A DNA stretch of 64,000 nt, taken from contig JAITWS010000053.1 of NCBI GenBank assembly GCA_031285185.1, positions 26,519 to 90,518 of the forward strand. The letters run 5' to 3'. The DNA is from Methylobacillus sp. Its GTDB lineage: Bacteria > Pseudomonadota > Gammaproteobacteria > Burkholderiales > Methylophilaceae. Positions 62,780 through 64,000 of the stretch are shown here, one piece after another (the first letter of the stretch is position 1; each line of letters opens with the position of its first letter). Under the pieces are notes generated by a model. That model was not told where the DNA came from. It did no database searches and worked only from the letters and a program-made list of their open reading frames with translations. Both the position numbers and the translations under genes were made by a program.

Positions 62780-64000
62780 ATGGGACTTTGGGACTATTCA
62801 GTTGATGCTGCTAAGGCAGGCGGTAAGGCAGCGAAGGATGCATGGATGAAAAATCCGGGCGAAACAGTTCAAAAAGTTTTGGACGCTAAAACCGCAGCAG
62901 AGATGGTTGCTCAGACAAAAGATGCTGCTGATGCCGCTGCAGATGGTAATCAACTTGAAACAAGTAAGGCTCTTATGGGTAATTTGCTCTTAGCAAACGA
63001 CTTAGCGAAAGGTGGCATACTTCCCACTGGCGAGCTTAAGAAGGGTCTCGATAATATGGCTGATACATATTACGGCCCAAATCAAGATAAAAAGTGGGAC
63101 GATGCGGTTAATAAAATTCTTGATATAAATCCAAAAGTTGCCGACAACTACGACCAATCCAAAAAACAGGTTGACCCCCTTGTTCTCGATCTGGACGGTG
63201 ATGGCTTGGAATTGACGGCTGTCAAAACCTTCTTTGACTTTAACGGCGATGGCGTTCGCACCGGCACGGCTTGGGTGGGCGCAGACGATGGCATTCTTGT
63301 GCGCGATCTCAATGGCAACGGCACGATAGACAACGGCAGCGAGCTTTTCGGGACGGACACGGTTAAATCCGATGGAACCCATGCGACCAGTGGCCTTGAT
63401 GCGCTCGCTGACATGGACAGTAATGGGGACGGTCAATTCACCGCTGCCGATACGGATTGGAATCAGGTAAAAGTCTGGCGCGATCTCAATCAAGACGGCA
63501 TCACCGAAGCAGGCGAACTTTTTACGCTCGATGAATTAGGTATTACGCGTATTGCTGTCAGCGGTGTTGACAATGGCAGCAGCATCAACGGCAATACCGT
63601 TGAGCAAACCGCCAGCTTTACCATCAATGGCCAAGAGCAAACGGCGGGAGATATTGGCCTGACAAGCGCCCCTTTTTACCGGCAGTTCACCGACGAAATC
63701 GCCGTCAGCGAAGAAGCCGCCGCCCTCCCATGGATGCGAGGCTCCGGCATGGCGCGCGACTTGGACGAAGCCGCCACACTATCCCCCGAACTCGCAAACC
63801 TGCTCACCCAATTCACCCAAGCCACCACGCGCGACGCGCAAATGGCGCTGATTGACAGCATCATCACGGCATGGGCGAAAAGCTCAGATTACTGGGCAAC
63901 CTTGGAACAAGAACTCGGCGGCACAGTTGCCATCAACATGGATTACTCCGCTGGCATGACAGAAGCCCAATTCCGCAACCTCATTTCCGTGCTGGAAGTG
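62780..64000 (+). CDS. FrpC/ApxIV-like protein with Asp-Pro self-processing module (5' part, runs off the window)
   Basis: Not in the ORF track; frame is open from ATG 62780 to the window end (407 codons). D132-P133 LVLDLDGDGLE; Ca-loops DFNGDG, DLNGNG, DSNGDG, DLNQDG; AWVGADDGILVRD; LPWMRGSGMARDLDEAA. Confidence 0.88.
   Translation, partial: MGLWDYSVDAAKAGGKAAKDAWMKNPGETVQKVLDAKTAAEMVAQTKDAADAAADGNQLETSKALMGNLLLANDLAKGGILPTGELKKGLDNMADTYYGPNQDKKWDDAVNKILDINPKVADNYDQSKKQVDPLVLDLDGDGLELTAVKTFFDFNGDGVRTGTAWVGADDGILVRDLNGNGTIDNGSELFGTDTVKSDGTHATSGLDALADMDSNGDGQFTAADTDWNQVKVWRDLNQDGITEAGELFTLDELGITRIAVSGVDNGSSINGNTVEQTASFTINGQEQTAGDIGLTSAPFYRQFTDEIAVSEEAAALPWMRGSGMARDLDEAATLSPELANLLTQFTQATTRDAQMALIDSIITAWAKSSDYWATLEQELGGTVAINMDYSAGMTEAQFRNLISVLEV

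Follow-up and report, generated by a model that had tools for sequence, protein, structure and literature searches.

The sequence studied here (C105:26519-90518, a 64,000-nt stretch of one contig of a Methylobacillus sp. assembly, referred to below as the window) ends within a gene whose product includes a self-processing module (SPM) such as is known from FrpC of Neisseria meningitidis. The open reading frame (ORF) starts with an ATG at 62780, has 407 residues inside the window and is still unclosed at 64000, as a preliminary description of this DNA had reported. The order of genes at the locus is partner A, the SPM-only gene, an XRE-type regulator gene, partner B and partner C, after which the contig ends. 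The assembly is 2.10 Mb in 140 contigs, 91% complete, contains no contig below 2.7 kb and resembles a metagenome-assembled genome (MAG). Its GltX is 86% identical to that of Methylobacillus sp. MM3 and the remaining named matches are from Methylophilaceae; the host is an environmental methylotroph and not a pathogen.

Codon 132 of the ORF (63173-63175) is GAC and the next is CCC, which places Asp132 where it had been described earlier and gives Asp132-Pro133 (63173..63178, plus strand) as the predicted scissile bond, aligned with D414-P415 of FrpC in the 6sjx alignment. The strings quoted in the preliminary description, KKQVD followed by PLVLDLDGDGLE, and LPWMRGSGMARDLDEAA, were both found in the translation. 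The SPM covers Pro133-Phe303 (63176..63688, plus strand) and is equivalent to FrpC 415-591. Residues 133-303 matched the solved FrpC SPM (PDB 6SJW, chain 6sjw_A) with E=1.3e-46 and 162.7 bits over chain residues 1-177 of 179, and the alignment started precisely at Pro133, directly after Asp132; judged by its score, this match is far beyond chance. With Pfam and NCBIfam no match was obtained for the 407 visible residues, the Pfam copy used having no PF26745; the database assigns PF26745 (the Pfam family "SPM") to the SPM protein described here.

Residue roles in FrpC were taken from Kuban et al. 2020 (PMC7078468) and mapped through the 6sjw_A alignment. The incomplete EF-hand D419/D421/D423/G424 with D456 corresponds to D137/D139/D141/G142 with D170, and the three EF-hand-like loops starting from D462, D499 and D521 correspond to DLNGNGTIDNGSE (176-188), DSNGDGQFTAAD (212-223) and DLNQDGITEAGE (235-246). 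All four FrpC-type Ca2+ sites are conserved; several Ca-binding loops had already been noticed behind the Asp-Pro pair. The Trp pair W451/W519 is kept as W165/W233, and the narrow-port residues G491 and D579-L582 are represented by G205 and D291-I-G-L. The sole departure among the mapped SPM residues concerns the transient fifth Ca2+ site, formed in FrpC by D478 and D579: D579 is kept as D291, and the position of D478 is taken by T192 with D193 adjacent (ELFGTDT vs ELFGDNT). The same G-x-D shift is seen in the closest Variovorax relatives, and D478 and D579 are stated not to catalyse cleavage (PMC7078468). The match to the solved module and the conserved sites together bear out the earlier claim of an intact FrpC-like Asp-Pro self-processing module: the gene encodes a genuine FrpC-type SPM that is intact at the level of its residues.

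The SPM and the region following it (window 63164-64000) were 52-53% identical to Variovorax (L034, Variovorax soli), compared with 32-42% (tblastn) for the host's own genus and family. Since it is closer to Variovorax than to its own family, the SPM body itself may also have been acquired horizontally.

The post-SPM region that is homologous to relatives occupies 63689..64000 (plus strand) and continues beyond the window to about C105:90794 (window-equivalent ~64276, residue ~499). Against Variovorax (44-53% identity) and six relatives from the genus and family, homology ended at about residue 493-505. The frame itself runs on and closes after 630 codons, 672 bases past the window, with the stop at C105:91188-91190. 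Over its final ~125 codons it reads antisense to a 90-codon XRE gene on the minus strand (C105:90812-91081, HTH_3 E=3.1e-15), which has a good TTG start and ribosome-binding site (RBS). GC contents at the three codon positions were 0.48/0.54/0.57 in this tail vs 0.58/0.46/0.67 just upstream, and the last ~125 codons have no coding periodicity in the frame of the SPM gene.

The product is therefore one of 630 aa, of which ~500 are homologous to relatives, and not one of more than 1000 aa with a C-terminal secretion signal; no GGxGxD repeat was found in the 630-aa product. The preliminary description had expected repeats-in-toxin (RTX) sequences and a type I secretion system (T1SS) downstream. 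When the contig was read onward, no GGxGxD repeats appeared, no HlyB or HlyD gene in the assembly scored up to its family cut-off, and the early stop that it had named as counting against its interpretation lies at codon 630. No second assembly of the SPM gene was obtained by exact-protein look-up or metagenome scan, and scans of genome and metagenome contigs with the SPM protein returned only SPM relatives with 36-37% identity.

The head, or passenger, in front of the Asp-Pro pair (residues 1-131; 62780..63172, plus strand) is predicted to be soluble and helical. It is rich in Ala, Asp and Lys (A21, D17, K17, no Cys), no signal peptide was found on the SPM protein, and no hydrophobic segment was found in residues 1-131, where the maximum Kyte-Doolittle hydropathy (KD) over 19 residues was 0.92. 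The earlier characterisation of this domain as short, Ala/Asp/Lys-rich, lacking a signal peptide and unrecognised held in the family and HMMER searches. Residues 1-131 had no match in Pfam and NCBIfam, and an exhaustive HMMER search of 1.84 billion representatives gave only two chance matches to the head (a HAMP-repeat chemoreceptor and an ankyrin-like repeat protein). In a six-frame search of 300 family genomes, no relative of the head was found outside its own contig, and in BLASTP the head showed no similarity to its counterparts in six relatives from the family. The AlphaFold2 model is all-helical with a mean predicted local distance difference test score (pLDDT) of 50, and no recognisable toxin fold or motif was seen in the head.

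The GC content at third codon positions (GC3) was 0.36 in the head vs 0.58-0.67 from the SPM onward. The step, from ~0.40 to 0.60, coincides exactly with the Asp-Pro pair, lying between codon windows with their centres at 125 and 135. As read from base composition, this step is a recombination seam at which a foreign partner-plus-head cassette would have been joined to an SPM body.

Immediately upstream lies partner copy A (61947..62777, plus strand, 276 aa), with a membrane helix or signal anchor predicted at its N-terminus (KD reaching its maximum of 2.57 at residue 14) and an all-helical repeat domain behind it. Its stop precedes the ATG of the SPM gene by 2 nt, and its last codons contain a GGAGAG ribosome-binding site (62769..62774, plus strand; ...TCAGGAGAGTAAAAATGGGA), 5 nt before ATG 62780; the two genes are predicted from this arrangement to be translationally coupled. 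Paralogues of copy A lie beyond the window, namely copy B (C105:91281-92111) and copy C (C105:92183-92534, cut by the contig end). These two, 57% and 93% identical, are the only relatives of the partner. It belongs to an orphan family: Pfam, NCBIfam and a PDB sequence search (E up to 10) gave no match, and no relative outside its own contig was found in a word-based search of 5.8 billion clusters or in the six-frame search of 300 family genomes. The ratios of nonsynonymous to synonymous substitution rates (dN/dS, omega) were 0.24 for A/B and 0.10 for A/C, and on the basis of these values the partner genes are judged real and under purifying selection.

The AlphaFold2 model of the partner (pLDDT 66) consists of helical repeats, with a best Foldseek match of TPR/14-3-3-like type that was non-significant (E=0.14). 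A FrpD-like fold (PDB 5EDF) was rejected for the partner, given the all-helical model and the TPR/14-3-3-like Foldseek matches; no PDB sequence match was obtained, and a Cys lipobox was sought in the N-terminus MMKKVLYVAIGVLVLWLVGVVWATHW and was not found. The last 70 nt of the contig (C105:92465-92534, in copy C) are 100% identical to copy A (window 62293-62362, C105:88811-88880), the copies being 91.5% identical overall. The contig end within copy C is thus an assembly break of the kind that repeats induce, and it may point to a second cassette that has been collapsed.

The genome has a GC content of 58%, and the partner gene and head have 41-47%. The drop, from ~0.58 to 0.41-0.48, begins at a gene for an XRE-type HTH_3 regulator (61318..61812, minus strand, 164 aa; Pfam HTH_3 E=3.1e-5), which is divergent from the cassette and forms the left edge of the low-GC stretch. 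A scan for promoters and terminators gave nothing above background level. The chromosomal flank of the island (window 52451-57763 and 58727-61168) consists of ordinary core genes with a GC content normal for the genome, which encode NarG and NarH of a respiratory nitrate reductase, a beta-carbonic anhydrase and an outer-membrane protein of alginate-export-like type.

RTX repeats (PF00353) were detected in the assembly only at C27:87-236 and C52:20090-20779. They belong to RTX gene tails at contig edges (C52:19697-20878, minus strand; C27:3-581, plus strand), the last ~90 residues of which are near-identical (...SIIGTTDSMTISNWYSGNAYHVEQFKTADGK...VIAANWQ); one tail closes C52 and the other opens C27, and the 5' parts of both genes are unassembled. 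C52 or C27 as a direct continuation of the SPM ORF was rejected, as the sequences do not overlap and the ORF already closes within the contig that carries it. On C52, the RTX gene is convergent with an XRE paralogue, an arrangement that fits a deletion having removed the RTX body. Next to the C27 tail are gltX and a phage-type integrase gene (760-1944, minus strand), neighbours that suggest an integrated island.

No HlyB/HlyD-type T1SS reached the family cut-off in this 91%-complete assembly of 140 contigs: the best TIGR01846 match had 338 bits (cut-off 726) and did not include the N-terminal domain, and the best TIGR01843 match had 34 bits (cut-off 209). The SPM binds Ca2+ with a Kd of ~150 uM, compared with less than 100 nM Ca2+ in the cytosol (PMC7078468). 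Having neither an RTX block nor a C-terminal signal, the product is not expected to reach the Ca2+-rich outside where the SPM fires, and as encoded it would stay confined to the low-Ca2+ cytosol and neither clip nor link. The covalent attachment to surfaces, matrix or rivals that had been suggested for this protein is thus not operative for this copy as assembled.

In the genus and family, SPMs were found in 12 of 41 related genomes, in every case within open frames that span 800-5459 aa and include RTX repeats. In none of these genomes did a match reach upstream of query residue ~107, and the heads of the relatives are unrelated to the head studied here and to one another. Lipase-type (GHSLGG; Lipase_3 E=1.5e-7) and HExxH-type heads occur among them, as do two short ones, of 127 and 199 aa, that have hydrophobic Gly-rich segments; the SPM frames of relatives with heads of these kinds measure 2400-5459 aa. 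Small ORFs for membrane proteins or lipoproteins lie directly upstream in the relatives, with three tandem paralogues in one genome of the same genus (G004). In another (G003), the Asp-Pro pair of an SPM-RTX gene encoding more than 5000 aa (L021:4828-19998) is preceded by a lipase-type head of 1371 aa (GHSLGG); a gene for a 212-aa membrane protein lies directly upstream of this SPM-RTX gene, which is flanked by T1SS ABC and HlyD genes.

In three SPM-RTX genes (L023:6863-16900 in G004; L025:7029-9428 and L025:2-6304 in G005), Asp-Pro is replaced by Ser-Pro (PSPIILDLDGDG, TSPLILDLDGDG); these otherwise conserved SPMs are either non-cleaving variants or use a different nucleophile. SPM matches occur by hundreds in Variovorax, Methylomonas, Pseudomonas and others. 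Of the earlier proposal of clip-and-link chemistry in a non-pathogen lineage, the part concerning a Methylophilaceae host with an intact SPM stands; SPMs in non-pathogens are not new.

The genomic contexts of four SPM-only proteins found in the database on large contigs were inspected, and three of them proved to be arrays. In Glaciimonas sp. GNP009 (5.4-Mb contig), the order is T1SS ABC, membrane fusion protein (MFP), 214 aa, 152 aa, SPM-only 472, SPM-only 576, 229 aa and SPM-RTX 1819. In Variovorax soli, it is SPM-only 314, 89 aa, SPM-only 631, 228 aa, SPM-RTX 1758, T1SS ABC and MFP, and in JGI Ga0573898 (5.0-Mb contig) 104 aa, SPM-only 354, 164 aa, SPM-only 365, 135 aa, SPM-RTX 1358, T1SS ABC and MFP. 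All genes of each array have the same orientation, with the SPM-only genes directly upstream of the full-length SPM-RTX gene. The array SPM-only genes (314-631 aa) stop just before the RTX block. Fragments and full-length neighbours share 82-96% identity from ~17-20 residues before the Asp-Pro pair to just before the first RTX repeat, and their heads are unrelated. In the fourth context, Stutzerimonas stutzeri (L036:6811-11053), an SPM ORF (762 aa) overlaps an RTX/cadherin-repeat ORF (690 aa) that is read in a different frame. A frameshift seems to have divided a single SPM-RTX gene here, which would be another route to an SPM-only annotation.

The 214-aa and 229-aa partner paralogues of Glaciimonas are 60% identical. 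Across genera, the heads of the full-length proteins of Glaciimonas (1819 aa) and Variovorax soli (1758 aa) are homologous (33% identity, E=4e-10), and their 229-aa and 228-aa partners are alike by eye with no BLASTP match; partner and head may travel together. Omega between fragments and full-length genes ranged from 0.11 to 0.38, and between the two Glaciimonas SPM-only genes (L033:8056-11731) it was 0.15 at dS 0.27. By these values the array fragments look to be not simply decaying, though gene conversion could produce the same omega pattern.

These arrays in Glaciimonas, Variovorax soli and JGI Ga0573898 resemble the locus studied here in having RTX-less SPM-only genes with unrelated heads and interleaved small partner ORFs. 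They differ in that a full-length gene and a T1SS are visible beside the fragments, whereas at the studied locus an XRE gene abuts the fragment and the main gene is, by analogy with the arrays, presumably off-contig. The array heads mostly have hydrophobic Gly/Ala-rich segments, in contrast to the hydrophilic head studied here, and the array partners are small polytopic membrane proteins or lipoproteins. No description of upstream arrays of RTX-less SPM fragments was found in the open-access text of the literature.

We favour, with a probability of roughly one half, the reading that the gene is a 3'-truncated, RTX-less SPM-only unit of a low-GC, horizontally acquired cassette array at a polymorphic FrpC-like (SPM-RTX) exoprotein locus, that is, a spare or displaced N-terminal cassette. 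This reading is built on the intact SPM, the loss of homology at about residue 500, the lack of RTX repeats, the seam at the Asp-Pro pair, the triplicated and constrained partner and the recurrence of such arrays elsewhere. The seam and the adjacent orphan partner were seen at the studied locus itself, and the conserved stretch in common with a full-length neighbour was seen only in the other genomes. The ~1.1-kb SPM and post-SPM stretch would act as a homology arm, through which head-plus-partner cassettes could be displaced from, or recombined into, an expressed full-length gene, in a mirror image of the orphan C-terminal cassettes of contact-dependent inhibition (CDI), Rhs, Maf and tpsC systems. 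Once fused to an RTX body, the head would be exported by the T1SS, and Ca2+-induced folding of the SPM would cut Asp132-Pro133 and free a ~14-kDa head bearing a reactive C-terminal anhydride. The partner would bind this head as its cognate, whether to confer immunity or to serve as an anchor in the manner of FrpD.

Several observations weigh against this interpretation. The junction is known from a single MAG assembly built from short reads. Only 1.3 kb further downstream the contig ends, within copy C, and no full-length SPM-RTX gene is visible beside the cassette. The gene directly 3' of the fragment is the XRE gene and not the next partner gene, and the ~125 junk codons appended to the fragment resemble the outcome of an accidental deletion more than they do a tidy cassette. 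The head is hydrophilic, unlike the hydrophobic Gly-rich, lipase or protease heads elsewhere, and so nothing suggests a toxin. Recombination, toxicity, immunity and cleavage are, moreover, putative at all of these loci.

An accidental deletion is the core of the view that the gene is a plain pseudogene, left when one deletion took away everything between about codon 505 of a full-length SPM-RTX gene and the end of the XRE gene beside it, so that the remnant has no role and the partners are ordinary duplicates. The run of 125 codons into XRE antisense with no clean end agrees with this, as do the simple frameshift split of the Stutzerimonas SPM gene, the failure to detect a T1SS in the assembly and the RTX-XRE convergence on C52, an arrangement suggesting that the lost part was originally located between these genes. 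A remnant of this kind nevertheless agrees less well with first 500 codons that are free of stop and frameshift and keep every SPM site, with the same pre-RTX truncation beside full-length genes in three other genomes at omega 0.11-0.38, and with purifying selection on the partner genes, and we regard a plain pseudogene as unlikely. The truncation could also have arisen in assembly, if the true gene were full-length, the contig joined or collapsed repeated cassette copies and the RTX 3' end on C52 or C27 were its body. The state of the MAG-like assembly in 140 contigs allows for such an error, the identity of the last 70 nt of the contig to partner A is typical of a repeat break, and two RTX 3' ends lacking 5' parts stand against one assembled SPM 5' part where contigs below 2.7 kb are absent. 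Around the breakpoint, however, no exact word of at least 18 nt recurs elsewhere in the assembly, the XRE ORF spanning it is intact with its TTG start and RBS, and there is no contig break at the supposed branch point; an artefact is accordingly given little weight.

Two further explanations ascribe a function to the protein as it is encoded. It may be a stand-alone SPM-only protein made up of head, SPM and post-SPM region, with its own role and exported or activated independently of a C-terminal T1SS signal. Intact SPM-only ORFs of 314-631 aa occur in several genomes, the two truncated Glaciimonas copies have the low omega given above (0.15 at dS 0.27), and the studied gene, which is coupled to its partner, is equipped with an RBS and a start of its own. 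Yet no signal peptide is present and the SPM needs ~150 uM Ca2+, found only outside the cell (PMC7078468); a low omega could also result from gene conversion by a full-length copy or from recent truncation; and the studied copy ends in antisense junk instead of a conserved C-terminus, which makes a role of this type quite improbable. The interpretation in the preliminary description, a working secreted clip-and-link protein that attaches the 14-kDa head covalently to surfaces, matrix or rival cells, has in its favour the intact Asp-Pro pair and SPM and the finding that the homologues tested in vitro all cleaved (PMC12538545). It is set against the missing RTX repeats and C-terminal signal, the early stop and the lack of a dedicated T1SS in the assembly, and we consider it very improbable for this copy.

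If the spare-cassette reading is taken beyond this locus, SPM-RTX loci could, tentatively and at clearly less than even odds, be regarded as a T1SS polymorphic effector system of reverse polarity, in which N-terminal heads and upstream partner or immunity genes are stored as selected SPM-only cassettes, swapped via ~1.1 kb of homology and released by Ca2+-triggered cleavage. If so, the window adds a head type that is present in no other sequenced genome, a soluble, Lys/Asp-rich, helical 14-kDa domain with a membrane-anchored TPR-like partner, and its many lysines together with the reactive anhydride could mean a head that cross-links itself or a target and is not a pore former. The role of FrpC-class clip-and-link proteins has been a standing question since 1993, and such loci point to a testable answer. 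FrpC-class proteins are not known to be cytotoxic, and frpC mutants are reported to be unattenuated in the infant rat model. The loci suggest the SPM as a boundary where exchangeable heads attach and are later released, in the manner of polymorphic toxins with reversed polarity. For annotation, the lesson is that an SPM match does not imply a working RTX exoprotein, many SPM ORFs being RTX-less fragments. As the studied copy is truncated and its assembly fragmentary, it serves as a modest example and not as a decisive case.

Compared with known systems, the module is the same as that of FrpC and FrpA of Neisseria meningitidis and ApxIVA of Actinobacillus pleuropneumoniae (PF26745, PDB 6SJW/6SJX), with the Asp-Pro start, four EF-hand-type Ca2+ sites and the Trp pair. 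Proteins of the FrpC/ApxIVA class have more than 1000 residues, 13-43 RTX repeats and a T1SS signal, whereas the studied ORF has ~500 real residues and neither of these features. The heads of FrpA and FrpC measure 293-414 aa, in contrast to 131 aa for the studied head, which has no relatives, and D478 of FrpC is Thr here. The region N-terminal to the SPM is variable across the family, FrpA and FrpC differing completely there (PMC3034196). The chemistry of the SPM, its spread beyond pathogens and the fact that any protein can precede it have been published (PMC7078468, PMC12538545, PMC3034196), and every SPM homologue tested in vitro cleaved (PMC12538545).

In the frpD-frpC operon, as at the studied locus, the SPM gene directly follows, and is coupled to, a small gene for an envelope-associated partner. 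FrpD is, however, a lipoprotein, whereas the studied partner is a predicted membrane-anchored helical-repeat protein that lacks a lipobox, resembles FrpD neither in sequence nor in fold, and is present in three paralogues. The idea of an effector with its immunity protein is in print only as a hypothesis for FrpC and FrpD, which were proposed to be a T1SS antibacterial effector and immunity protein alongside Smlt3024/Smlt3025 (Bayer-Santos et al. 2019, PMC6759196).

Orphan toxin/immunity cassettes are known for cdiA-CT/cdiI, Rhs-CT, Neisseria tpsC and mafB-CT (PMC5472700). In these CDI, Rhs, tpsC and mafB cassettes, as in the SPM arrays, truncated copies keep a conserved stretch beside a variable domain and a small partner gene and are stacked by one full-length gene; a variable part that differs in composition from the conserved part is common to orphan toxin cassettes and the studied locus. 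The polarity of the SPM loci is reversed relative to CDI, Rhs, Maf and tpsC, with the variable domain N-terminal, the partner upstream and the fragments truncated at the 3' end. SPM fragments retain their start codon and RBS and stand upstream of the main gene, the reverse of CDI/Rhs-type orphans, and their heads, again unlike the CDI/Rhs type, would be exported by a T1SS and released by the Ca2+-dependent SPM.

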